Both the position numbers and the translations under genes were made by a program. Below, in pieces: positions 2,688-50,100 of a stretch of DNA of 64,000 nt (position 1 is its first letter; every line of letters begins with the position of its first letter). The notes under the pieces are model-generated. The model worked only from the letters and a program-made list of their open reading frames with translations, ran no database searches and was not told where the DNA came from. Origin of the DNA: Escherichia coli (lineage in GTDB: Bacteria > Pseudomonadota > Gammaproteobacteria > Enterobacterales > Enterobacteriaceae); assembly GCF_003018115.1 (NCBI RefSeq), contig NZ_CP027457.1; one strand, 5' to 3'.

Positions 2688-3740
2688 TTATTCTGTTGGA
2701 TCAGGAATGCCCAGTGTTGTATTCAGACGTCCACGAGACTTATTAAAGATCTTATTGCCATTTTCACGTCCTGCCCGACGGCGTCGCTGTTCTTCTGGCG
2801 GTAACGCGCTTTCTTCGCAGCAAATCTCACTACAACAACCTTTGTATTTTTCCGCACATACTGGACACTGAATAAACAGCAGGTGGCAGCCATCATTTTT
2901 ACAGTTGGTATGGCTGTCGCACGGCGCACCGCACTGGTGGCAATGCGCAATAATCTCATCAGTTATACGTTCGCCCATCCGCTCGTCAAAAACAAAATTT
3001 TTGCCAATAAAACGCACCGGCAAGCCCTGCTCGCGCGCCCTACGGGCGTATTCAATAATTCCGCCCTCGATATGCCAGACTTTATTGAATCCGTTATGTT
3101 TCATCCAGGCACTGGCCTTTTCACAACGAATGCCGCCGGTGCAGTACATGACGATTTTTTTATCTTTATGTGCCTGCATCATCTCGACTGCTTTTGGCAG
3201 CTGCTCACGGAAGGTATCTGCTGGAATTTCCAGCGCGTTTTCAAAGTGCCCCACTTCATACTCATAGTGGTTACGCATGTCGATAAACAGTGCATCGGGA
3301 TCGTCAAGCATGGCGTTCACTTCCGCCGCTTGCAGATACTCACCAACATTGCTGGCATCAAAGTGAGGATCGTCAATACCGTCGGCAACGATACGATCGC
3401 GGACCTTCATGCGCAGTACCCAGAAGGATTTCCCGTCATCATCCAACGCGATATTCAGGCGTAAGCCATCTAAAGCCGAGTCGAAGGCATAGAGCTGCGC
3501 GCGAAATGTTTCAACATTGCTCGCAGGTACGCTGATTTGCGCGTTAATGCCCTCATGCGCCAGATACACTCGCCCAAAAACATTCAGCGCGGTAAACAGC
3601 TGATATAAAGCGTCACGGGTCGCCTTAGGATCGGCGATGTGGAAATACTTATAAAACGAAATGGTGGTTCGCGGTTCGCTCTCAGCCAACATTTTGGCTT
3701 TTAACGCGTCGTTGGAAATGCGGTTGTGTAACACTGGCAT
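2688..3740 (-). CDS. yceA: rhodanese-domain tRNA U34 hydroxylase (YceA/TrhO)
   Basis: ORF 2688..3794; [16 protein letters not shown] start at 3740 gives 350 aa; rhodanese [10 protein letters not shown] motif; C-terminal Cys cluster. Confidence 0.9.
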
Positions 3741-35976: not shown

Positions 35977-36193
35977 CAGCTTTTCCTTACAGAGGGTGAA
36001 TAAAAAAGCCGGTACCCACAAATGTGGATACCGGCAGGTACAAAACAGCATGGTCAGATAAAGTGGTTTTTCCCGGACATAAATGCTTCCCCTCTCTCAT
36101 CCGCCAGAGAAGTATCAGTCCGTTGTGTGCAATTCCGTTCTGCATGATGAAGAGATTCAGCTGCCTTTTCGCAGGCCATTAACCACCATAAAC

Positions 36194-36229
36194 GATCGAT
36201 AGTAACGATCGATACCTGTTTTATCGATC
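36194..36229. promoter_or_regulatory. flu (agn43) Dam/OxyR phase-variation switch
   Basis: Three GATC sites at 36194, 36207 and 36226 within aacGATCGATagtaacGATCGATacctgttttatcGATCGtttta, about 220 nt upstream of the flu ATG. Confidence 0.85.
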
Positions 36230-36348
36230 GTTTTATTCTATTGATAGCAGAGCGGTCACGCAAGAGAAACAGGAGGGGCATGAGGTGTTTGTATCATGTT
36301 TTCAGTTGGTTAACGCAATGTAATCAGGCATTTCCCCTGGCAGACTGT

Positions 36349-37221
36349 TCAGAAGAAAATCCAGTTCCATACCGCGCGGGCAACAGAGACCACCGAGTCA
36401 CGGACGGCACGCAGAACCGTGCGTGCAACAGAGGCAATACAGACGCTCTCCGCCGTGTCAAATATCCGGTCCACCGCACCGGTAAACTGTTCACGGGCCT
36501 GAGACCGGACAGATTCCGTGCGCAGCTCGTCCTGCAGGCGGGTCATCAGGGGGCTGGCGGCATGGTCGGGAAGCGCTGTCATGAGCGCACTGACCAGCGT
36601 ATCCAGTTCCCAGCCGGTGCGGGCCGATACGGCAACAACCGGATGTACGGGCCGGAACAGACGGAATACCGCCTCCGTTTTTTCGCGAATGTTCTGTGCC
36701 TGTGCGGGAGAAGGCTGAATGCCGGCCATATCCCATTCATGGCAGGGCTCCGTTTTGTCGGCCTGCGTCACCACAAACAGCACCTGCTGATGCCCCCGGT
36801 GCAGAATGTGTCGCCAGAAATACTCATCCACAGACAGGGCCCGGTCATCGGCTTTAATCAGCCACAGTACCAGGTCCAGTTCAGACAGAATGTTACGGTA
36901 CAGGGCTTCATACTCTGCATCCCTGTCACGGCTCTCGCCCACCCCGGGCAGGTCAGTGATAACCATGCTGTGACCGTGACCACTCAGACGGAAGCGCTGC
37001 ACTTCCCGGGTGCCGGCGTGAACATCACTGACCGGGGTGACCTCCCCCTGAAACAGTGCATTACAGAGTGAGGATTTACCGGCCCCGCTTTTCCCCATAA
37101 TGCCAATCACGGGTTCGTGACTGGTGAGTTTGCGCAGATGTTCCAGGATGTGACGGGAAAGTGAGTAAGGCAGGGAAGAAAGTGGTTTTTCAATTGCCTC
37201 AATGGCATCAGACGGATTCAT
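36349..37221 (-). CDS. YeeP/YfjP-type GTPase
   Basis: MNPSDAIEAIEKPLSSL start at 37221 gives 290 aa; P-loop GIMGKSGAGKSS and DLPG motif. Confidence 0.85.
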   Translation of the reverse strand: MNPSDAIEAIEKPLSSLPYSLSRHILEHLRKLTSHEPVIGIMGKSGAGKSSLCNALFQGEVTPVSDVHAGTREVQRFRLSGHGHSMVITDLPGVGESRDRDAEYEALYRNILSELDLVLWLIKADDRALSVDEYFWRHILHRGHQQVLFVVTQADKTEPCHEWDMAGIQPSPAQAQNIREKTEAVFRLFRPVHPVVAVSARTGWELDTLVSALMTALPDHAASPLMTRLQDELRTESVRSQAREQFTGAVDRIFDTAESVCIASVARTVLRAVRDSVVSVARAVWNWIFF

Positions 37222-37384
37222 ACATGTATTCCCGGTGAAAAAAGACAAAACCCCGCGCACCGGAAAGATGGCGGGGGATTCACGGAGATAATATCTGTCT
37301 GAAATTATTTGAAATGCAGGTATATGCAGCTAATTTGTATCAGCTTATTGGTACAGTACTAAACCTCATCTGACAGTCCGCTCT

Positions 37385-37399
37385 GTGCCAGGAGCGGAC
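37385..37399 (+). repeat. left copy of 15-nt direct repeat gtgccaggagcggac
   Basis: Identical 15-mer at 38896-38910; this copy forms the 3' arm of hairpin gtccgctc-tgtgccag-gagcggac (37376-37399). Confidence 0.6.
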
Positions 37400-37502
37400 A
37401 TTCCGATATTGAAAAGTAAATTGTCTTGCTGTATTTTTTCAGTCATAAAAATGAATAAGGATTCTCAGATGAGTGAGATATTTGAACTATTCAGTTCTAC
37501 TG

Positions 37503-38219
37503 TCAGTCCTTAAGTTTATTCATAGAAAGCCGCTCTTGGCGTTTAAGCTCATTTAAAGTGAAAAAAGCACATTTATTAGATAAAATATAAATAGTTCCTA
37601 CTAACCGATGTAAGCGCCTCATTTTTTCGGGCATAGAGAATTCAGCATTTTTGACAAACATTAAAGAATCAACCCCAGCAGAGAACATATATTGTAAACT
37701 TTCCATATTAAAAGCCTCTAGTGGATTTACTTCGTTAATATCAATACTATTAACAGACCTCTCTATTTCGAGGTAATCTTCACTTGTCATTGAATAGTCT
37801 ATTTTATGAGCGAATTTATTGCGGATAGAATTCAGCTTAACTAAAGAATTTGCAATTGAGAGAGGTAAACCTAAAGCAACACAGATCTCCAGTTTTGGAG
37901 TAAAATATCGTGATGGTTTAACGAACTGCTCAGTACCAGGCTTCCTAACATTGTTGATGAATACTTCCAAGAAATTCTCAATCAATAGGCTAAGTCTTAG
38001 CAAGACTGATGCTTCGTCATTTATACTTAGTAAAGGTGCAAATTTTTCTGCGTCAAGAAAGAAACCGAGGTCATTATTAATCGCTACATATCCAGTTAGA
38101 TTGTTATTTGACTTCATATTCATAAAAACCTTATCTTGTATATTAGCGGCATATTGTACCATAAATTGAATCGTGGTTTGTTCTAAGAATGGACACAAGA
38201 ACTTCCTCTCCTCACTCAT
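37503..38219 (-). CDS. hypothetical protein with HEPN-type R-x4-H motif
   Basis: ORF 37503..38228 (TTG); ATG at 38219 gives 238 aa; motif IRNKFAH encoded at 37806-37823; AT-rich; no close family recognised. Confidence 0.6.
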   Translation of the reverse strand: MSEERKFLCPFLEQTTIQFMVQYAANIQDKVFMNMKSNNNLTGYVAINNDLGFFLDAEKFAPLLSINDEASVLLRLSLLIENFLEVFINNVRKPGTEQFVKPSRYFTPKLEICVALGLPLSIANSLVKLNSIRNKFAHKIDYSMTSEDYLEIERSVNSIDINEVNPLEAFNMESLQYMFSAGVDSLMFVKNAEFSMPEKMRRLHRLVGTIYILSNKCAFFTLNELKRQERLSMNKLKD

Positions 38220-38230
38220 AAGAGACAACC

Positions 38231-38267
38231 ATACTCAAATCTCCCACATTGCAGGAGATTTGAGTAT
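38231..38267. promoter_or_regulatory. perfect 14-bp inverted repeat between divergent starts
   Basis: atactcaaatctcc (38231-38244) / ggagatttgagtat (38254-38267) with 9-nt loop; the right arm contains the ggag SD and the first two nt of the recombinase ATG. Confidence 0.6.
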
Positions 38268-38868
38268 GAACACGTCACCGTGGAACAAAGACCGTATCAT
38301 CGCCCAAAAAAGACCACTTCAGATATCTCATATCTGGGAGATCCGAATCCGGCTTGAACTGGAAGGTAAAACGCGCGATTTAGCTCTGTTCAATATGGCC
38401 CAGGACAGTAAGCTTCGAGGCTGTGATCTGGTCAAACTCAAAGTATCGAATGTGGCATATGGTAGCTCGGTTTCAAGCAGAGAAACGGTGTTGCAACAAA
38501 AAACCGGTAACCTTGTGCAATTCGAGATAACCAAAGGGACAAGAGAAGCTGTTGCTGCATTGATAAAGCTTGGCAATTTGCACAGTAAAGACTTCTTGTT
38601 TCGGTCTCGGGTCGGAACTAATCGGCACATATCAACCCAGCAATACAGCCGAATTTTTCATGGGTGGGTAGAAAAGCTTGGTCTCGAAGCTTCGCTGTAC
38701 AGCACACAATCCATGAGAAGAACAAAACCTTACCTAATCTACAAGAAAACCAAGAATCTCCGGATCATCCAACTTCTGTTGGGTCATAAGAAACTGGAAA
38801 GCACGATCCGTTATCTGGGCATTGAAGTCGATGATGCGTTAGAGACCTCTGAATCGATTGAAGTCTAA
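38266..38868 (+). CDS. short (200-aa) tyrosine recombinase, FimB/FimE-sized
   Basis: ATG 38266 preceded by aggag; catalytic signature ...SKLRGCDL..., ...QSMRRTKP..., LLGHKKLESTIRYLG (R...R...H...Y); no long N-terminal arm-binding domain. Confidence 0.8.
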   Translation: MNTSPWNKDRIIAQKRPLQISHIWEIRIRLELEGKTRDLALFNMAQDSKLRGCDLVKLKVSNVAYGSSVSSRETVLQQKTGNLVQFEITKGTREAVAALIKLGNLHSKDFLFRSRVGTNRHISTQQYSRIFHGWVEKLGLEASLYSTQSMRRTKPYLIYKKTKNLRIIQLLLGHKKLESTIRYLGIEVDDALETSESIEV

Positions 38869-38895
38869 GGTTGTCAGAGCTGCAATAGCAGCCCC

Positions 38896-38910
38896 GTGCC
38901 AGGAGCGGAC
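38896..38910 (+). repeat. right copy of 15-nt direct repeat gtgccaggagcggac
   Basis: 28 nt after the recombinase stop; identical to 37385-37399. Confidence 0.6.
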
Positions 38911-39026
38911 CTAACTAAGTTCATACAACATTGATTATTGAAGATTAGGTCAGAAATAAATACTTTATTTTGATAATTTAGTTACGTTAGAACACCGCAA
39001 TGTACAACGTAAAAATGAGGAATAAT

Positions 39027-40388
39027 ATGACTCGGAGTGAAATAAACGTCTGGGATGAGAGAAGAGGTACCAATAGTCATCGAGTGGAGGAGATTCGATC
39101 TGAAGCTCAGCACGACCTTTCTCGATTGATTCACTCGTCTGCTTTCAGACGATTACAATCCAAAACACAGGTTCTTGGTCTGGGTGAAAGTGATTTCTAC
39201 CGCACACGACTGACTCATTCTATGGAAGTCGCACAAATCGGTTCAGGTCTTCTTGCTAAGTTGAAAATAAAATATAAAGGTAAAGAGCAAGAGCAATTTT
39301 TACCAGATAACGCTCTTATGCAGGCAGTATGTCTCGCACATGATATTGGACATCCTCCATTTGGTCACGGCGGTGAGGTAGCTCTTAACTACTGTATGCA
39401 GGATTACGGTGGTTTTGAAGGAAACGGTCAGACGCTTCGCATTCTCTCGAAACTAGATAAGTATACCTTAGAACACGGACTCGATCCTACACGCAGACTT
39501 CTGCTAGGCATACTGAAATATCCGGTTAAATACTCGGAGCTAGTGGTTACAAAAGACAGAATCCCGGTCACTATCGGATCACCAAACTGGCTCTTTAAGT
39601 CATCTGATTTTAAACCTCCAAAATGCTATCTAGATTCAGAATGCGATGTTGTAAAATTTGCTCTCTCACCATTTACTGAACAGGATCGGAGGCTTTTTAC
39701 TTCCGTTGAAGATGGTCAAACTAAATCCGATCATAAAAAAGCTTCTTATAAAGCTCTCGATACAACTATAATGGATCTTGCCGATGAAATTTCGTATTCG
39801 CTGCACGATTTGGAGGATGCTATTTCTCTCGGAATGGTGACACGAGAAATGTGGATGGAGCATTTCAGTGAACATGAAACCCTATTTACTAACTGCCATG
39901 GAAAAATATTTTCCGAAACATGCCAATCTGTAGCGGATAGCCTTTTTGGTGAAAGTTACAAGAGAAAAGAGTGCATCGGGATGCTGGTTCACCTGATGAT
40001 TACAAGCGTTGAGCTTATTACAAAGAATCCAGCATTCGAATGTGGCATGCTCAAATATAATGCGGTCCTTCCGGAAGCGGTCGAAGCACTACGGTTGAAA
40101 ATTTTCAAACTGGTCAAAAATAAAGTAATTAAGCATGAAAATGTACAGCAGCTTGAATTCAAGGGACAAAAGTTGATTGTTGAGCTCTTCGGTGTGTTGG
40201 CGAACGATCCGTGTCGGTTTCTACCTGCCTCAACGAGGGAAATTTACGAGCGGCAGACTAGCTTAGACAAGAAGGCTGGTATGCGAGTCATTTGCGACTA
40301 TGTTTCAGGGATGACTGATGACTATGCAACAAAGCTTTATGAGAAGATCCTTATTCCACGCAAAGGGTCTATTTTTGACCATCTCTAA
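39027..40388 (+). CDS. dGTPase-family HD-domain dNTP triphosphohydrolase
   Basis: ORF 39000..40388; ATG 39027 follows aggaa; motifs IHSSAFRRLQSKTQV, YRTRLTHSMEVAQIG, HDIGHPPFGHGGE, DLADEISYSLHDLEDA. Confidence 0.85.
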   Translation: MTRSEINVWDERRGTNSHRVEEIRSEAQHDLSRLIHSSAFRRLQSKTQVLGLGESDFYRTRLTHSMEVAQIGSGLLAKLKIKYKGKEQEQFLPDNALMQAVCLAHDIGHPPFGHGGEVALNYCMQDYGGFEGNGQTLRILSKLDKYTLEHGLDPTRRLLLGILKYPVKYSELVVTKDRIPVTIGSPNWLFKSSDFKPPKCYLDSECDVVKFALSPFTEQDRRLFTSVEDGQTKSDHKKASYKALDTTIMDLADEISYSLHDLEDAISLGMVTREMWMEHFSEHETLFTNCHGKIFSETCQSVADSLFGESYKRKECIGMLVHLMITSVELITKNPAFECGMLKYNAVLPEAVEALRLKIFKLVKNKVIKHENVQQLEFKGQKLIVELFGVLANDPCRFLPASTREIYERQTSLDKKAGMRVICDYVSGMTDDYATKLYEKILIPRKGSIFDHL

Positions 40389-41372
40389 CACGGTAAGAAT
40401 GATACTCTGAGTTCAATTGACCTATAAACATTAACCAAGGCATCTACCAGGGGGGATATCAAATCCCCCCATTCTGAATTTGTTCATGCAGAATCGGTGA
40501 ACGTTCTCATCTGAGCGTTAAACGCCAATAATCATTGATCTACACTGATCATTAATACACCTTAATACCATTAGCGTCTTACTCCGTTATGAGAACAAAC
40601 GCGAACTTCCGCTGTTCGCTCAAAGCAGACCATTCGCTCAGTTAACGCATCAGTGTCGTGCTAGAAGTAGAAGTGGTTAACAACAATGTGAGTTAATCAA
40701 CGGAGAGCAGGTCAACTCTAACCTGTATCAAAAAACAAATGTGTCATAAAGATGCCGCATGCCTTAATTTGAGTATAATTGAGACGGAAGTAGACGGTTT
40801 ATGACTAGATATTGTTGATATATAGCTATTTGAAGAGTTGTAGCGCAAGCGCATAGCCCAAACTAATAACGCTACGCCCCTTATCAAAGAGCGGCAACGA
40901 TGCACAGCTCGCACGAGACAATATTCGCACAAGAAATCAGGTTCGGAAATAACCAGCTCTGGCATGGCGGGGAGAGTATCAATGGTCAGGCTTTCGGTAA
41001 GATGCGGCGGGATGAGGTCGGCGTGGGTTACAGCAGTACAAGGTCGCCCACAGAGGGTAAGCCACAGCGTGGAATCCTCGGTTTCTATCAGGGATTCGGC
41101 GAAGCGGGCGCAGTTGTCGACCAAGACGATGAAATCCATTGTGGCATTATAAGGGAACGAACAATAGATCGAGTAAATCGCAGTCAGGGACAAGGATTGT
41201 AGTCATAGAGAAGTCTCCTGTAACGGTTTTCAGGAGGCTAATCCCGACGCCTGATTTCGCAGGCGCGGAAAGAGAGGATACTGCGACCATTAATCCGCCA
41301 CAAGTCATTTACGTACATAAATCGCGCAGTCAGATCCGACTCCCACTGTAGTTCTTGAACTTGATACCACAT

Positions 41373-41414: not shown

Positions 41415-41660
41415 ATGAATATGAATGAAGATGAGATTTATCGCCATATCCGGCAGGCACTTTCCAGTGCGCCGCGTAACCAGTACACCGTCGAGCTACA
41501 CCTGCAAATGATTAAATATGCCGACGAACTGGAACACATTACGGCAAAAGCCTTTTGCGAAGGCACCGGTCTGAGCCAGAGCCTCGGTACCGAATTCAGC
41601 AAAATGCGTAACTTAACCCGTCGGTTGAAGGCCGCCGGTCTGAATACCGATCTGCTGTAA
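41415..41660 (+). CDS. small putative HTH protein preceding hsdM
   Basis: ORF 41355..41660; ATG 41415 gives 81 aa MNMNEDEIYRHIRQALSS...ITAKAFCEGTGLSQSLGTEFSKMRNLTRRLKAAG (HTH-like by eye). Confidence 0.6.
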   Translation: MNMNEDEIYRHIRQALSSAPRNQYTVELHLQMIKYADELEHITAKAFCEGTGLSQSLGTEFSKMRNLTRRLKAAGLNTDLL

Positions 41661-41699
41661 CCGACTTACGGCAGATTATCGCGCAAAACGAGATATTTA

Positions 41700-44138
41700 A
41701 TGGCTATCAAAAAAACCGAACTCTATTCTTCCCTGTGGGCAAGCTGCGACGAACTGCGTGGCGGGATGGACGCCAGCCAGTACAAAGACTATGTACTGAC
41801 CCTGCTGTTTATGAAGTACGTTTCCGATAAGTATAAAGGCGATCCTTACGGGATGATCGTGATACCCAAAGGAGCCAGCTTTGACGATATGGTTGCGCTG
41901 AAAAATGACAAAGAGATCGGCGACAAAATCAACAAAATCATCCACAAGCTGGCGGAAGAGAACGGCCTGAAGGGCGTCATCGACGAAGCCGACTTTAACG
42001 ACGAAGATAAGCTCGGCAAAGGCAAGGAAATGATTGACCGCCTGAGCAAGCTTGTCGGTATCTTTGAAGGGTTAGATCTCTCCAGCAACCGGGCCGAAGG
42101 CGACGATCTGTTGGGCGATGCCTATGAATATCTGATGCGTCACTTCGCAACCGAATCCGGCAAGAGTAAAGGGCAGTTTTACACTCCGGCGGAGGTGTCA
42201 CGTATTCTGGCGAAGGTGATTGGTATTACTCCCGATACGCCGCGAGATGCAACGGTTTATGACCCAACCTGTGGCTCTGGTTCGCTGCTGTTGAAAGTGA
42301 ATGATGAAGCCCGGCGCGGACTATCGATTTTCGGCCAGGAGATGGATAACGCTACCAGTGCACTGGCGCGGATGAACATGATTCTGCATAACAATGCCAC
42401 CGCGAAAATCTGGCAGGGTAATACGCTGAGCGATCCGCAGTGGAAAGAGGCGAACGGCAAACTGAAAGCCTTCGATTTTGCCGTGGCGAACCCGCCTTTT
42501 TCCAATAAAAACTGGACCAACGGGTTGACGCCGAAAAAAGATCCGTTTGAACGCTTCGGCTGGGGCATTCCGCCGGAGAAAAACGGCGATTATGCTTTTT
42601 TGCTGCATATCATTAAAAGCCTGAAAAGTACCGGCAAAGGCGCGGTGATCCTGCCCCATGGCGTACTGTTTCGCGGTAACGCCGAGGCAAATATCCGTGA
42701 AAATCTAATCAAGCAGGGCTATATCAAAGGCGTTATTGGTTTGCCGGCCAACCTGTTTTACGGCACCGGCATCCCGGCGTGCATTATTGTGATTGATAAA
42801 GAGCACGCCCACAGCCGCAAAGGCATTTTTATGATCGACGCCAGTCGGGGCTTTATCAAAGATGGCAACAAGAACCGCCTGCGTAGCCGAGATATTCACC
42901 GCATTGTGGACGTGTTCAACCATCAGCGAACGGTGCCGGGCTACAGCCGGATGGTGCCCTCCAGCGAGATCGCCGGAAATGATTACAACCTGAATATTCC
43001 TCGCTATATCGAGAGCGGCGAGCCGGAAGATTTGCACGATCTGACCGCGCACTTACAGGGCGGTATTCCAGCACGCGATGTGGATGCTTTGCAGGATTAC
43101 TGGCGGGTATTCCCTGCCCTGCGCAACGTGCTGTTTGCTGACGACCGTTCCGGTTACTGTCGGGCGCAGGTGAACGCGCAGCAGGTGAAACCAACCATTC
43201 TGGCACATCAGGAGTTTAAGGATTTTGCCACCCGCAGCCTGCTACCGTTTAAAGCGTGGGTGAAAGAGGCAAGTCTGGAAGAGATTCGCAAAGGTGATAA
43301 ACCCAAAGCGCTGATCCACGATATCAGCGAGATGTTGCTTGTGCAGTACGCCAACAGTGAGTTGCTGAACAAGTACAGCGTGTACCAGATCCTGATGGAT
43401 TACTGGGCTGATGTCATGCAGGACGATGTGTATGTGATTATGCAGGATGGCTGGCAAGCCGCCGCGCAAATCCGCGAGCTTCAACCGGTGAAAGGCAAAG
43501 ATGGCAAAAACATCTGGAAAGAAACGCACGATTTCGAGTTTACCAAACAGCGCTACAAGGCCGATGTGCTACCCCGTTCACTAGTGGAAATTCGCTGCTT
43601 CCCGGAACTGCTGGATACGTTGAACCGCGCGCAGGAGCGCAGTGAAGAAGCCAGTCGTCAGCTAGCGGAACTCATCGAGGAGCAGGCAGGGGAAGAGGAT
43701 CTGCTGGCTGAGGCGAAGAACGATAAAGATAAGGTGACGCAAAAGCTGGTGAATGCCCGTCTGGCACAGTTGAAGAAAACCCCTGCCGACCCAGATGAGC
43801 TGGCAGTGCTGAACCGCTGTCTGGCGCTGATTAAGGCCGAGGCCAGTGCGAAAAAAGCGCTGAAAGCCGCACAGGAAGCGTTGGATCGAGCGGTATTTAA
43901 ACATTATCCCACGCTGGATGAAACAGCGATTAAAACGCTGGTAGTGCAGGATAAGTGGCTGGCAACGTTGCAGGCAGGAATCAAGGCGGAGATTGAGCGT
44001 ATTACCCAGCAACTGGCGTCGCGCGTAAAGGAGCTGGAAGAGCGTTATGCTGAACCGTTGCCAGCGCTTGAAGCCTCCGTTGAGGCGTTGAGCGAGAAAG
44101 TGGCCGGGCATTTGCGGGCGATGGGGCTGGAGTGGTGA
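41700..44138 (+). CDS. hsdM: type I R-M methyltransferase subunit (long form, 812 aa)
   Basis: AdoMet motif VYDPTCGSGSLLL and catalytic motif FAVANPPFS; about 330-aa charged, helical-looking C-terminal extension. Confidence 0.92.
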   Translation: MAIKKTELYSSLWASCDELRGGMDASQYKDYVLTLLFMKYVSDKYKGDPYGMIVIPKGASFDDMVALKNDKEIGDKINKIIHKLAEENGLKGVIDEADFNDEDKLGKGKEMIDRLSKLVGIFEGLDLSSNRAEGDDLLGDAYEYLMRHFATESGKSKGQFYTPAEVSRILAKVIGITPDTPRDATVYDPTCGSGSLLLKVNDEARRGLSIFGQEMDNATSALARMNMILHNNATAKIWQGNTLSDPQWKEANGKLKAFDFAVANPPFSNKNWTNGLTPKKDPFERFGWGIPPEKNGDYAFLLHIIKSLKSTGKGAVILPHGVLFRGNAEANIRENLIKQGYIKGVIGLPANLFYGTGIPACIIVIDKEHAHSRKGIFMIDASRGFIKDGNKNRLRSRDIHRIVDVFNHQRTVPGYSRMVPSSEIAGNDYNLNIPRYIESGEPEDLHDLTAHLQGGIPARDVDALQDYWRVFPALRNVLFADDRSGYCRAQVNAQQVKPTILAHQEFKDFATRSLLPFKAWVKEASLEEIRKGDKPKALIHDISEMLLVQYANSELLNKYSVYQILMDYWADVMQDDVYVIMQDGWQAAAQIRELQPVKGKDGKNIWKETHDFEFTKQRYKADVLPRSLVEIRCFPELLDTLNRAQERSEEASRQLAELIEEQAGEEDLLAEAKNDKDKVTQKLVNARLAQLKKTPADPDELAVLNRCLALIKAEASAKKALKAAQEALDRAVFKHYPTLDETAIKTLVVQDKWLATLQAGIKAEIERITQQLASRVKELEERYAEPLPALEASVEALSEKVAGHLRAMGLEW

Positions 44139-45445
44139 TGGTGGATTTAATGGTGAATGAGCAACGATCAGGTACGGCGGGGAAAGATGTGCCTGCGGGG
44201 TATAAGCTGACTGAGGTGGGGGTGATTCCTGAGGATTGGGTAGTAATCTCTATTGATGACTGTACAACCAAAGTTGGTAGTGGAAAAACACCAACTGGTG
44301 GAGCATCTGTTTATATTGATAGCGGACGCCCTTTTGTCCGTAGCCAAAATGTTGATTGGGGAAGATTAGATCTCGCCGATGTCGTACATATTACAGATGA
44401 AACCCATAACACATTCTCTGGTTCTGAAATTCAGCAAGATGATGTTTTACTCAACATAACGGGAGCATCTATCGGCCGATGCGCTAAAGCTGATTTTAGG
44501 GTTATAGGTGGTAATGTTAACCAACATGTTTGCATCATCAGAACAGAGGCAAAAAAACTCTCCCCATCCTTACTGGTTGAATTAATCAATTCAAATTATG
44601 GACAAAACCAGATTGATAGTTATCAAGCCGGAGGAAACAGAGAAGGACTGAATTTTTCTCAAGTTAAAAATCTTAAGTTTGCTATTACACCAAACTCCCT
44701 TGAACAAACGGAAATTGTCAGAACATTAAATGATATTAATGCATTCACTCTCGCTCTGGAAAACTTAATTGCTAAAAAACAGGCCATAAAAGCCGCTGCT
44801 ATGCAACAACTACTCACCGGTAAAACCCGTTTGCCGCAGTTTGCGTTGCGCAAAGATGGATCTGCTAAGAGATATAAAAAGAGCAAGTTGGGGGAGACTC
44901 CAGAAGATTGGGCAGTTAATAATATTGGAGATTTATTCTCCATTACCGCAGGAGGAGATTTAAGACAGTCTGAATTCTCTAATATTCAATCTGAAAAACA
45001 TCTTTACCCTATTTATTCCAATGCAATTAGTCATTATGGTTTATATGGCTATTGCCAGAGTTATGATTATGTTGGTGACTATCTAACAATCACTGCGAGG
45101 GGAGGAATCGGCCATGCCGTGGCAAGAAAAGGAAGATTCTGTGCAATTGGACGATTATTAGTTCTTAGTCCAAAAGGAGATTCAAACGTAAAATTTTATG
45201 AAGGGTATATAAACCAATACTTATCATTTGCAAATGAGAGCACTGGAGTCCCTCAACTTACAGCTCCTCAAGTTGCAAAATATCCGGTTGTTTCCCCATG
45301 CATTGAAGAACAAACCGCCATCGCCACCATCCTCTCCGATATGGACAAGGAAATTCAGACCCTGCAACAACGTCTGGACAAAACCCGTCAGCTTAAACAG
45401 GGGATGATGCAGGAGCTGTTAACCGGGAAAACACGCTTAATATAA
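44135..45445 (+). CDS. hsdS: type I R-M specificity subunit
   Basis: Start overlaps hsdM stop; two AT-rich variable TRDs separated by conserved [26 protein letters not shown] and ending [17 protein letters not shown]. Confidence 0.92.
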
Positions 45446-45456
45446 AAGGGAAACCT

Positions 45457-46107
45457 ATGACTACAGCGCCAGCCTCAATCCGCAAAAAGCCCTGATCTGG
45501 CGTATCGTCCATCGGGACAATATCCCGTGGATTCTGGACAATGGTCTGCACTGCGGCAACAGCCCGGTGCAGGCTGCTAACTGGATCAATATCGGCAACC
45601 CGGAGCTTATCGGCAAGCACGCCGGACATCCGGTACCTGTCGGGACGGGCGGGACACTGCGTGACTATGTGCCATTTTATTTTACCCCCTTCTCGCCAAT
45701 GCTGATGAACATCCACAGCGGACGTGGCGGCATTAAGCAACGCCCCAATGAAGAGATCGTTATTCTGGTCAGCAGCCTGCGGCACGTGGCAGCACACGAC
45801 GTGCCCTTCGTGTTTACCGACAGCCATGCTTACTATAACTGGACCAACTACTACACCAGTCTGGATAGTCTGGACCAGATCGACTGGCCCATTTTGCAGG
45901 CACGGGACTTTCGCCGCGATCCAGACGATCCGGCTAAATTTGAACGCTATCAGGCAGAGGCGCTAATCTGGCAACACTGCCCGATCTCGCTGCTGGATGG
46001 GATAATTTGTTACAGCGAAGAGGTCAGGTTACAATTAGAACAATGGTTGTTTCAGCGTAATCTAACAATGTCCGTTCACACACGGGCTGGATTGGTACTT
46101 CTCATGA
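45457..46107 (+). pseudogene. darT: DarT ssDNA ADP-ribosyltransferase toxin, out of frame at both ends
   Basis: ATG 45457 (frame 1) stops after 12 codons; body in frame 0 ([19 protein letters not shown]...[16 protein letters not shown]...[11 protein letters not shown]...RYQAEALIW...) aligns with recalled Thermus DarT; native-looking end ..DWYFS* (TGA 46105-46107) is back in frame 1. Confidence 0.8.
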
Positions 46108-47171
46108 TCACATATACACAAGGCAATTTACTGGACGCACCGGTGGAAGCTCTGGTGAATACGGTTAATACCGTCGGTGTCATGGGGAAAGGCATCGCGT
46201 TGATGTTTAAAGAGCGCTTCCACGAAAATATGAAAGCCTATGCCCTCGCCTGCAAACAAAAGCAGGTGATCACCGGCAAAATGTTCATTACCGAAACCGG
46301 GGAACTGATGGGACCGCGCTGGATTGTTAATTTTCCGACCAAACAGCACTGGCGCGCTGACTCCCGCATGGGGTGGATTGAAGATGGCTTACAAGACTTA
46401 CGTCGATTTTTGATTGAAGAGAACGTGCAATCCATCGCCATTCCACCGCTGGGCGCAGGCAACGGTGACTTGAACTGGCCGGACGTTCGGGCGCAGATTG
46501 AATCTGCCCTTGGCGACCTTCAGGACGTTGATATCCTGATTTACCAACCAACTGAAAAATACCAGAACGTTGCCAAAAGCACTGGCGTAAAAAAGCTCAC
46601 TCCCGCCAGAGCCGCCATCGCTGAACTGGTGCGTCGCTACTGGGTATTGGGGATGGAGTGCAGCCTACTGGAAATCCAGAAACTGGCCTGGCTGTTACAA
46701 CGCGCCCTTAAGCAGCATCAACAGGACGATATCCTCAAACTGCGGTTTGAAGCTCACTATTATGGCCCCTATGCGCCCAATCTGAACCATCTGCTTAATG
46801 CGCTGGACGGCACCTATCTTAAAGCCGAGAAACGCATCCCGGACAGCCAACCGCTGGATGTGATCTGGTTTAACGATCAGAAAAAAGAACACGTTAATGC
46901 GTATCTGAACAGCGAAGCCAGAGAGTGGCTACCGGCGCTGGAGCAGGTCAGCCAGTTAATTGACGGCTTTGAATCGCCGTTTGGTCTGGAGCTGCTGGCA
47001 ACCGTAGACTGGTTGCTGAGCCGTGGCGAATGTCAACCAACACTGGATTCCGTTAAGGAAGGGCTGCACCAGTGGCCTGCGGGCGAACACTGGGCCAGCC
47101 GTAAGTTGAGGCTGTTTGATAATAATAATCTGCAATTTGCCATTAACCGCGTAATGGAGTTCCATTGCTGA
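46104..47171 (+). CDS. darG: DarG macrodomain antitoxin
   Basis: 355 aa [39 protein letters not shown]...[12 protein letters not shown]...[14 protein letters not shown], closely parallel to recalled Thermus DarG; ATG overlaps the darT TGA (ATGA). Confidence 0.9.
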
Positions 47172-47189
47172 GGGTTTAAGGAGCGCCTT

Positions 47190-50100
47190 TTGAGTACCGT
47201 GGGCCAGCGCGAACGCGCCACACAGCAGCGTCTGATTCAGTTTTTTGTTGAAGATTTAGGTTACCGCCATCTGAGTCACCGCACCGGGTACACCGGGAAC
47301 AGCAACATCGACACTAATATACTGAGCGCGTGGCTAAAACGGCGCGGCGTTAATGATACGTTGATCACCCGGGCGTTGCGGCAACTGGATTCCGCCGCCG
47401 CTCTGGGCGAAGGCAAAAAACTCTATTACGCCAATAAAGAGGTCTATCGCCTGCTACGTTACGGCGTGAAAGACAAAGAAGGCGCAGGCGAGCAGAACCA
47501 AACCGTGTGGCTGATTGACTGGGCCAACCCACAAGCCAATGATTTCGCCATCGCCGATGAGGTGACGGTCAAAGGCGAGTACTGCAAGCGCCCGGATCTG
47601 GTGCTGTACGTTAACGGCATTGCGCTGGGCGTGATTGAACTTAAGCGTTCGTCAGTGCACGTCAGCGAAGGCATCCGGCAGAATCTCGATAATCAAAAGA
47701 AAACCTTTATCCGCGATTTCTTCACCACTATGCAGTTAGTGATGGCGGGCAACGATACGCAGGGCCTGCGCTACGGCACCATCGAAACCCCGGAAAAATA
47801 CTATCTGGAGTGGAAAGAAGATAATCCAGGCGACTATACACATAAACTCGACTTTCATTTAAGTCGTCTGTGTAGCAAATCCAGGCTGTTGGATATCGTC
47901 CATAATTACATTGCCTTTGATGTCGGAGTGAAAAAACTCTGCCGCCATAATCAGTTCTTCGGCGTCGAGGCGGCTAAACAACATATTGCCCGTCGTGAAG
48001 GCGGTATTATCTGGCACACACAGGGATCGGGTAAAAGCCTGACGATGGTCTGGCTGGCGAAGTGGATCCGTGAAAATGTGCCAAACTCCCGCGTGTTGAT
48101 TGTGACTGACCGCACCGAACTGGATGAACAGATCGAAAGCGTGTTTATGGGCGTGAATGAAGATATTTATCGCACCTCCAGCGGCAACGATCTTATCGCA
48201 ACGCTCAATCATCCTAACCCGTGGCTCATTTGCTCGCTGGTGCATAAATTTGGTCGTCGCAGCGAAGCTGAAGACAATGCGGCTACCGACGCCTTTATCA
48301 CCGAATTACAGCAGTCCCTGACGAAAACATTCCGCGCCAAAGGCGATCTGTTTGTTTTTGTGGACGAGTGCCACCGCACACAATCCGGCAAGCTGCATAA
48401 CGCCATGACTGCCATTCTGCCGGACGCCCTGTTTATCGGTTTTACCGGCACACCGCTGATGAAGAAAGATAAGAAGAAGTCGGTTGAGGTGTTCGGCCCT
48501 TATATCCATACCTATAAATTTGATGAAGCGGTGGCCGACGGTGTGGTGCTGGATCTGCGCTACGAGGCACGCGATATTGACCAGTATCTGACATCAGAGA
48601 AAAAGGTCGATGACTGGTTTGAAGCCAAGACTCGCGGTTTGTCGAATTTAGCCAGGACCCAGCTTAAGCAAAAGTGGGGATCAATGCAGAAGCTGCTCTC
48701 CAGCAAGTCGAGGCTGGAGCAGATCGTTAACGACATTTTGCTGGATATGGATACCCGTCCACGCCTGATGGACGGGCGCGGCAACGCCATGCTGGTATGC
48801 AGCAGTATCTATCAAGCCTGCAAGGTTTACGAGATGTTCAGCCAGACCGAGCTGGCAGGAAAAGTAGCGATTGTGACCAGCTATCGCCCCGATGCCGCCA
48901 GCATCAAAGGCGAAGAAACGGGCGAAGGGTTAACGGAGAAACTCTCTAAACACGCCACCTATCGTAAAATGTTGGCTGACTATTTTGAACAAAGTGAAGA
49001 GAAGGCCGCCGCACGCATTACCGAGTTCGAGCGGGAAGTGAAACAGCGTTTTATTGAAGAGCCGGGGCAAATGCGCCTGCTTATCGTGGTGGATAAGCTG
49101 CTGACTGGCTTTGACGCGCCGTCCGCCACCTATCTCTACATTGATAAAACCATGACCGACCATACGCTGTTTCAGGCGATTTGTCGGGTGAACCGGCTGG
49201 ACGGTGAGGATAAAGAGTATGGCTATATTATCGATTATAAAGATCTGTTCCGTTCGCTGGATAAAGCGATTACCGATTACACCACGGGCGCGTTTGATGA
49301 TTACGATCGGGACGATGTGGCCGGGTTGCTGAAAGACAGGCTGGAGCAGGCGCAACTGGATCTCGACAGCGCGCTGGAGATGGTTCGCAGCTTATGTGAA
49401 CCCGTCAAAACCCCGCGCAGCCTGCAGGACTATCAGCACTATTTTTGCGGTGAATCAGGAGAGAATCAGACTTCGTTAAACGAAAAAGAGGCGCTGCGCC
49501 TGACATTTTACCAGTGCGTCGCCCGTCTGCTACGCGCTTATGCCAGCATCGCCAATGAAATGCCGGAAGCAGGCTACACTGCCGAAGAGGTAGAGAGCAT
49601 TCGCGCCGAAGTCGCTGAATTCGAAAAACTGCGCTATGAGATTAAGCTGACCAGCGGCGATCTTCTGGATATGAAGCGCTTTGAACCCGCTATGCGTCAT
49701 TTACTGGATATGTATGTTCGCGCCGATGATAGCGAAGTGCTGATGGATTTTGAAGAGTTAAGTCTGATTGAACTGATTGTCGAGAAAGGCTTGGCGGCGA
49801 CCGTCGCCCTGCCGGATGATATCCGTAATAATCAGGATGCGATGGCGGAAACCATCGAAAACAACGTGCGCAAAACCATCGTGGATGAAAACCCGGTTAA
49901 CCCAAAATACTATGGACGCATGTCGCAGCTGCTGGATGAACTGATTACCCTTCGCCGACAAAATGCGCTCAATTATCAGCAGTATCTGGAACGTATCCGC
50001 GATTTGTGTAAACAAGTCATCCGCCCGGAGCAAACCGCCGGAGCGTGCTACCCTGCCACCATGGATACACAAGCAAAGCGCGCCTTCTATGATAACTTCG

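Follow-up and report, generated by a model that had tools for sequence, protein, structure and literature searches.

Integrons and the pdif modules of Acinetobacter are the described systems closest in organization to a gene array that was analysed here in a 64-kb stretch of Escherichia coli DNA (contig NZ_CP027457.1; the whole stretch is referred to as the window). Integrons combine a tyrosine recombinase with arrays of cassettes of one to a few genes that meet at short imperfect palindromes; their cassettes are rich in anti-phage genes and are presumed to pass through circular intermediates, and many arrays lack a recombinase, as in the integrase-less integron clusters. These traits have counterparts in the array at 37376–40672, which carries the genes of a predicted HEPN protein, a 200-amino-acid (aa) tyrosine recombinase and an anti-phage dGTPase between short sites, in the order A, HEPN, B′, recombinase, C, dGTPase, B-linker-A′, with a B-linker-A junction of ~66 bp. 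By its sequence, the region is composed of three modules, rather than being the single two-gene element (HEPN gene and recombinase gene) that an initial annotation of the window had drawn. On balance, we favour the reading that the three modules belong to a widespread system for the site-specific insertion and exchange of cassettes, analogous to integrons and pdif modules. Such an array would explain why a dGTPase gene and a HEPN gene lie between the backbone of an adhesin island and a block of type I restriction-modification (R-M) and DarTG genes.

A wider claim is put forward tentatively. A very large family of ~200-aa, catalytic-domain-only recombinases and two heterospecific cores on shared arms may together constitute a natural cassette-exchange system that excises, inserts and swaps anti-phage cassettes between unrelated mobile elements, and this could be the missing mechanism for defence turnover. 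In phages, satellites, plasmids and islands alike, the defence genes at fixed variable spots are replaced very quickly, and a two-class recombinase system, if real, would offer a concrete mechanism for this turnover. The sites would then serve as a signature by which cassettes can be delimited and new defence genes found, and genome engineering could profit from so compact an enzyme, of 200 aa, and its naturally heterospecific 24-bp sites.

Comparison with described recombination systems

The array departs from integrons in its enzyme, its sites and its setting. The recombinase has 200 aa and lacks a core-binding domain, whereas IntI has ~320–340 aa; against the IntI model NF011946 it scores 15 bits (cut-off, 435). 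The sites are of a 24-bp duplex type with arm, core and arm, fall into two classes and are conserved in sequence (94–100% in core and arms), whereas attC sites are single-stranded hairpins defined by their structure. There is no attI or common promoter here, the cargo genes lie in either orientation with their own promoters, and the arrays sit inside phages, plasmids and islands. Neither an IntI-type integrase nor attC sites with co-oriented promoterless cassettes were found.

pdif modules likewise form arrays of gene modules with inverted short recombination sites in several plasmid contexts, and their exchange by paired site-specific crossovers was reportedly proposed by Blackwell and Hall in 2017 and in later work. 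We regard this as resemblance and not membership. In contrast to pdif modules, which are served by the host XerC/XerD, the present modules have a dedicated, element-borne recombinase of 200 aa, two sites that differ in their cores, B and A, are present at every junction, and the hosts are mobile genetic elements of Enterobacterales, including phages. Scores against the Xer models TIGR02224 and TIGR02225 were 35.9 and 25.6 bits (cut-offs, 335 and 330), and no dif-like sites were found; dif is an 11-6-11 site, and the A and B sequences are unrelated to it by inspection.

The arrangement is also like that of engineered cassette exchange with heterospecific lox or FRT sites, in which shared arms surround different crossover cores and mutually inverted sites flank the cargo. 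Since the two engineered sites are inverted and heterospecific, they do not recombine with each other but only with a like site on another molecule. Engineered exchange is a laboratory design, and we know of no natural counterpart that has been described. Finally, FimB/FimE and Rci of the R64 shufflon are small or dedicated tyrosine recombinases with short inverted repeats. FimB and FimE, of ~200 aa, have no separate core-binding domain, and the sfx core of Rci, GTGCCAA, resembles the A core. Rci differs in having 384 aa and in shuffling gene segments rather than whole genes.

The variable loci of P2-like phages (Z/fun and tin-old) and of lambdoid prophages are the same loci as those flanked by A and B sites here. 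These loci and their cargo have been described (Rousset et al. 2022, PMC9122126; NAR 2026, PMC13586616). According to the survey of P2/P4 variable spots, it is not known how defence genes are exchanged with unrelated elements, and none of the options named there (transposons, homologous recombination and illegitimate recombination) is judged satisfactory (PMC13586616). A full-text literature search that included the site sequences and protein accessions, with the 2004 paper of Nilsson and co-workers outside its reach and priority therefore uncertain, retrieved no description of the system, in line with the statement in the initial annotation that the cassette was not recognized as a described element. 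To judge from its title, that paper, Nilsson et al. 2004, proposed that P2 variable loci undergo site-specific recombination, and the repeats may already have been noted in it.

Two classes of sites and the movement of cassettes

A 15-mer, GTGCCAGGAGCGGAC, had been reported to flank the HEPN and recombinase genes, and its two identical copies (37385–37399 and 38896–38910, both on the + strand) proved to be the only ones in the window, with no further copy at up to 2 mismatches. The accompanying caveat that such a repeat could arise by chance can be dropped: at least two matches to the 15-mer occurred in 0 of 100 dinucleotide shuffles, and the presence of the motif at corresponding places in hundreds of independent loci rules out a chance origin. 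Within a 24-bp A site, the 15-mer forms the portion on the cargo side, made up of the 6-bp core GTGCCA and a 9-bp arm. The left copy makes up the last 15 nucleotides (nt) of an A-type site at 37376–37399 (+ strand; GTCCGCTC/TGTGCCAG/GAGCGGAC), the left border of the variable array, which reads gtccgctc-tgtgccag-gagcggac; the 8-bp palindrome that the 15-mer had been said to close is therefore present, with perfect inverted arms.

Loci with a recombinase homologue yield the A consensus GTCCGCTY-YGTGCCAR-RAGCGGAC. A second class of sites, B, has the arms of A (GTCCGCTYY and RRAGCGGAC) around the core GAGCGA, and on its other strand reads GTCCGCTC-CTCGCTCA-yAGCGGAC. Two of the six invariant positions distinguish the A core from the B core, and across 215 A sites and 202 B sites the cores are 94–100% invariant. 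Among the viral contigs of IMG/VR, an exact 24-bp A site is present in at least 120 and a B site in 73; fixed mismatch thresholds were used in the site scans.

The arrangement of the two classes was analysed in 174 neighbouring site pairs from 182 viral loci that had been picked for one exact site, the second site of each pair not being preselected. A and B were mutually inverted in 143 pairs and co-oriented in none. The inverted pairs comprised 112 cassettes, in which A is followed by an inverted B at a spacing of 0.57–5.8 kb, and 31 junctions, in which B is followed by A at a median spacing of 42 bp (one at 1.6 kb); another 31 pairs joined sites of the same class at 0.28–9.5 kb. Junctions between cassettes take the form B-(~18 nt)-A or B-recombinase gene-A. 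It is the sequence of the arms that is conserved, with most substitutions in them left uncompensated, and the sites thus resemble protein-binding sites on duplex DNA rather than attC-like hairpins; hairpin recognition of the attC type was rejected on these grounds. A B variant in locus L012 (~3179–3202; GGCAGCTT/TTCGATCA/AAGCTGCC) is unlike this general pattern, with two compensatory changes that leave arm complementarity perfect.

Cassettes bounded by A and B occupy variable spots in P2-like phages, lambdoid prophages, CP4-44-type islands and plasmids. In P2-like Yersinia phages (L006), the gene at the Z/fun position lies between A and B, and a 74-bp remnant of the recombinase module adjoins the B site at this spot. 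The lambdoid variable spot is the interval between the DUF977 gene and hokD, and its flanks are present in ~4,500 E. coli genomes. Seven copies of it were examined, of which five (L002, L090, L091, L092 and L095) have an A site after the DUF977 gene; the cargo at this spot includes AbiH, SIR2, a KwaB-like (Kiwa) protein and RelA/SpoT, among others. Beside YeeP-like GTPase genes, an A site with ~35 nt of left flank occurs in ~1,090 E. coli genomes and is followed by varied cargo that ends in B. Plasmids, among them those of Klebsiella, Shigella and Pantoea, carry the sites too. Beyond the sites, P2-type spots have flanks that are themselves inverted (..aatctgaca/A ... B/tgtcagatt.. in L096, L100, L107 and L210), and the left flank in the window, at 37360–37375 (..catctgaca/A), resembles them.

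A scan of 94 cargo open reading frames (ORFs), which lie on either strand, with PADLOC and Pfam gave matches to defence-system models for many of them. PADLOC matches comprised PD-T7-1, PD-T7-5, NsnA, PD-T4-2, SIR2, LmuA, Lit and dGTPase, as well as DarT/DarG, Tmn, ThsA, CARF-ADA and restriction enzymes, and other ORFs matched HEPN or GmrSD Pfam families. Some of the cargo is not related to defence (LysR regulators, MFS transporters and GNAT acetyltransferases), and many of the scanned ORFs match no known defence model.

Several comparisons place the borders of mobility at the sites. A Rac-like prophage in E. coli RM9513 carries, in the interval from the DUF977 gene to hokD, a copy of the window's dGTPase cassette that is 97% identical, the homology running from 38896 to 40607. 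From the A core to B, a Shigella IncFIA plasmid and Erwinia share a cassette at 92% identity. Among 126 cassettes with 68 distinct cargoes, 21 pairs with the same cargo differ in both flanks and 30 pairs in one flank. Where cassette ends could be aligned, identity switches within the 24-bp sites: the polymorphic site positions 8–9 track the outer flank and positions 16–17 track the cargo, which places the crossovers in the invariant core (positions 10–15). Linkage mapping of the A site at 37376 likewise assigns its outer arm to the island backbone, while its core and inner arm travel with the cargo.

The recombinase and competing explanations

The recombinase gene (38266–38868, + strand) encodes a 200-aa protein with a catalytic domain only, assigned to the tyrosine recombinase superfamily by PF00589 (1.3e-14). 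Its catalytic set consists of R51, K79, H148 (changed to Q), R151, H174 and Y183; position 148 is H in 108 of 113 homologues and Q in the window copy only. In total, the window copy carries 11 substitutions at positions that are at least 95% conserved, including the catalytic H148Q. A family profile aligns residues 36–184 to the catalytic (C-terminal) domains of XerD, XerA and XerH, and the restriction of the match to these domains indicates that the enzyme lacks a core-binding domain. A single-sequence search of PDB with the recombinase was empty, only the family profile reaching the Xer domains, and the AlphaFold model was poor (pLDDT 52) and too weak to use. Homologues were scored in at least 7,899 clusters and, among the 120 matches listed, are mostly of ~200 aa with generic names. 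PADLOC and NCBIfam gave no specific family for either the recombinase or the HEPN protein.

The recombinase gene moves with its own ends, as a module of ~710 bp that extends from B to C (~38200–38910). The module is present in 895 of 5,426 E. coli genomes at 80–95% nt identity (mostly 90–95%) and in 731 plasmids at 60–95%, with different neighbours in each case, and its homology to other genomes starts at 38200–38212 and ends at 38908–38910. The gene is always preceded by a B site and followed by a stem-loop and an A-type half site, C. In the window, the left end of the module is B′ (38203–38226, + strand; TTCCTCTC/CTCACTCA/TAAGAGAC), a degenerate site with four mismatches to the usual recombinase-proximal B (GTCCGCTC/CTCGCTCA/TAAGGGAC). 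The right end, C, lies with its preceding stem-loop at 38875–38910 (24-bp site at 38887–38910, + strand) and is at the same time the left border of the dGTPase cassette. Its stem-loop, which has the consensus CAGGGCTGC-aaca-GCAGCCCTG and two mismatches in the window copy, overlaps a non-canonical outer arm, AGCAGCCC, that is followed by CGTGCCAG/GAGCGGAC, the last 15 nt being the right 15-mer.

In Pseudomonas and Burkholderiales, homologues of 57–60% identity still have inverted sites at their ends that contain the arm RAGCGGAC, and their loci contain further copies of this arm motif kilobases away. A hairpin at 38230–38268 (+ strand; 15-bp stem, -22.5 kcal/mol) sequesters the Shine-Dalgarno sequence (GGAG, 38254–38257) and the ATG of the recombinase gene. 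The hairpin is conserved between enteric and Pseudomonas homologues through compensatory changes, which hints that, as with some transposases, translation from read-through transcripts is silenced. Two diverged recombinase modules lie a few kilobases apart in L009 (7939–8645 and 11794–12495), L017, L043 and L081, with inverted orientation in L081.

From these features, a scheme of exchange can be proposed. As a dimer, the 200-aa recombinase would bind the 9-bp arms, and strand exchange would take place over the 6-bp core. An A site would pair only with A and a B site only with B, because the cores differ at two of six positions. Intramolecular recombination between two A sites or two B sites would release a cassette circle, possibly including the recombinase gene and either neighbour. 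In the window, one such circle would hold the HEPN and recombinase genes and another, through B′ and B, the recombinase and dGTPase genes; as the 15-mers at A and C are in direct orientation, recombination between A and C would excise the former as a circle of 1,511 bp. Intermolecular A × A or B × B recombination would insert a circle, and A × A plus B × B between two replicons would swap a cassette. The recombinase is expected to act mostly in trans.

Several observations weigh against this scheme. The evidence is comparative throughout, and the enzyme is linked to the sites by association only. It is encoded in only 8 of the 182 site-bearing viral loci, which implies that, if it acts on the sites, it would do so mostly in trans, and its 895 E. 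coli genomes compare with at least ~1,000 in which sites flank variable spots and with the ~4,500 that have the lambdoid spot at which sites were seen; with the recombinase rarer than the sites, many sites may be fossils or serve another enzyme. Two copies of the lambdoid variable spot (L093 and L094) have no detectable sites, some cassette ends break just outside the site (at the degenerate B after the dGTPase gene in L090), and the crossover mapping is based on 14 and 20 informative pairs. An empty junction at the window locus, searched for at a coverage of at least 80%, was seen in 0 of 5,426 E. coli genomes, and an unoccupied extended palindrome in P2-type flanks was absent from IMG/VR at spacer lengths of 0–24. 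Lastly, the scheme does not account for the origin of the linker.

The recombinase and sites of the window appear decayed, the copy being probably inactive or weak and the array fossilised, because of H148Q and the other substitutions, the four mismatches in B′ and two in the C stem-loop, the occurrence of the HEPN and recombinase pair in five genomes and the lack of an empty junction.

According to the initial annotation, the HEPN and recombinase genes would form a minimal integrative element, with the 15-mers as attL and attR. On such a model, the element would be self-contained, and a 1.5-kb circle would have integrated at one site beside the GTPase gene. Part of this idea stands, since the 15-mers are recombination-site sequences tied to a small recombinase. 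They are identical direct repeats of 15 nt (starting at 37385 and 38896) and frame the two genes exactly, with the HEPN ORF 103 nt from the left repeat and the right repeat 28 nt past the recombinase stop, as had been reported; both flank homologies of the window locus end at the 15-mer, and distant homologues in L020, L024 and L029 show the same order of site, cargo, recombinase and site with direct repeats. The reaction itself is also permitted by the cassette-system explanation. What fails is the autonomous two-gene unit. The pair occurs in five genomes only, all in the context of the window, while the recombinase module has many other neighbours, and neither an attB nor the unit elsewhere was detected; the proposed empty site, 37399 joined to 38911, is the junction missing from the 5,426 genomes. 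The right 15-mer, taken for the end of the element, travels with the dGTPase cassette, whose homology to the Rac-like prophage starts exactly there, and the recombinase carries 10 unusual substitutions besides H148Q. Of the borders, the two 15-mers had been recognized but B′, which lies between the two genes, and B (40607–40630) had been missed, and with the second site class the extension of the array to 40630 was overlooked as well. An element of this kind is, in our judgement, unlikely.

It is quite improbable that A and B are merely conserved boundary or linker sequences, possibly terminator or insulator hairpins, between which cassettes are exchanged by short-homology recombination (phage Red or RecET, or RecA), with the recombinase being unrelated cargo or moving only itself. 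Such linkers would fit the absence of a recombinase near most site-flanked cassettes, the recombination functions encoded in lambdoid and P2 contexts (recE adjoins the variable spot in L090), the palindromic form of the sites and the compensated B variant mentioned above. They would not be expected, however, to show two core classes in strict mutual inversion (143 versus 0). Against them also stand the arm-core-arm anatomy that is classic for tyrosine-recombinase sites, the conservation of the arms by sequence rather than structure, and the mapping of crossovers to a 6-bp core. Moreover, the recombinase gene occupies the junction position with the same sites at its own ends, and the arm sequence is kept across genera. 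A role of the sites as intrinsic terminators was rejected, as the A and C hairpins have no T-run and elsewhere only weak terminator-like matches were seen. An inversion switch of the FimB/FimE or shufflon type, in which cargo or the recombinase gene would be flipped between inverted A/B or B/C sites, is very improbable. The recombinase is of FimB/FimE size and has a weak match to an invertase model (4.7e-4), every cargo and recombinase gene is flanked by inverted sites, and modules of the Pseudomonas type have near-perfect inverted ends; yet none of the 126 assembled cassettes, with their 68 distinct cargoes, was found in both orientations relative to A and B, the two cores differ as described, and the scores against the FimB/FimE models NF007371 and NF007370 were 19.7 and 14.7 bits (cut-offs, 222 and 221).

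Cargo genes and surroundings of the array

The whole array is AT-rich, as was noted for the two-gene region, with 35–44% GC across 37200–40800 versus ~57% in the flanks. An Rfam scan detected no known RNA within 37300–40700.

The first cargo gene (37503–38219 or 38228, - strand) encodes a predicted HEPN protein by its motif IRNKFAH, of the Rx4H type. Its ORF matches Pfam HEPN_RiboL-PSP at 4.9e-4 (20.5 bits, below the curated cut-off of 28.4) and phrog_5712 at 6.6e-46, and has no match in PADLOC. As annotated, from either of these starts, the ORF reaches with its N-terminus into the degenerate B′. Homologues have 189–231 aa, and because those of 60–88% identity have 192–213 aa, the true start is probably the Met near 38123, which would give ~206 aa. 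HEPN as cassette cargo elsewhere was considered and rejected: the homologues examined sit in lambdoid-type phage contigs without A or B sites, and those of 70% identity lie in ordinary phage operons.

The second cargo gene (39027–40388, + strand) encodes a dGTPase by PADLOC (9.2e-145), with PF13286 at 6.1e-19 and PF01966 at 6.3e-7, and is named 'anti-phage deoxyguanosine triphosphatase' in RefSeq. Within the cassette, a G/C-rich hairpin, caggggggatatcaaatcccccc, at 40445–40470 follows the stop codon of the dGTPase gene. The RM9513 cassette has conserved this hairpin, which could act as a terminator. On the right, the dGTPase cassette and the variable array as a whole are both bordered by the B-type site at 40607–40630 (+ strand; TTCCGCTG/TTCGCTCA/AAGCAGAC). 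It is followed at 40631–40672 (+ strand) by the 18-nt linker cattcgctcagttaacgc and a degenerate A-type site (40649–40672; ATCAGTGT/CGTGCTAG/AAGTAGAA), which together with B form the B-linker-A junction. A junction like that at 40607–40672 is present in locus L089, and the architecture is common to the 31 unique junctions. Backbone homology to related islands picks up again at 40590–40616.

To the left, the array adjoins the backbone of an island with Ag43 and a YeeP-like GTPase. The IS102 (IsrC) small RNA was found by Rfam at 36000–36231 (- strand; 60.5 bits, E = 1.3e-8, above the gathering score) between the GTPase gene and Ag43, a placement that we take to be typical of CP4-44-type islands. 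In the backbone just right of the array, sub-threshold Rfam matches at 41205–41279 (- strand) correspond to isrK and to the a1/b1 targets of C4 antisense RNA. The anti-phage dGTPase is followed on this side by a type I R-M system with DarTG: the operon, at about 41600–50000, consists of hsdM, hsdS and hsdR, with DarT and DarG between hsdS and hsdR and a gene for an M48 peptidase next, and its DarT is frameshifted in RefSeq.

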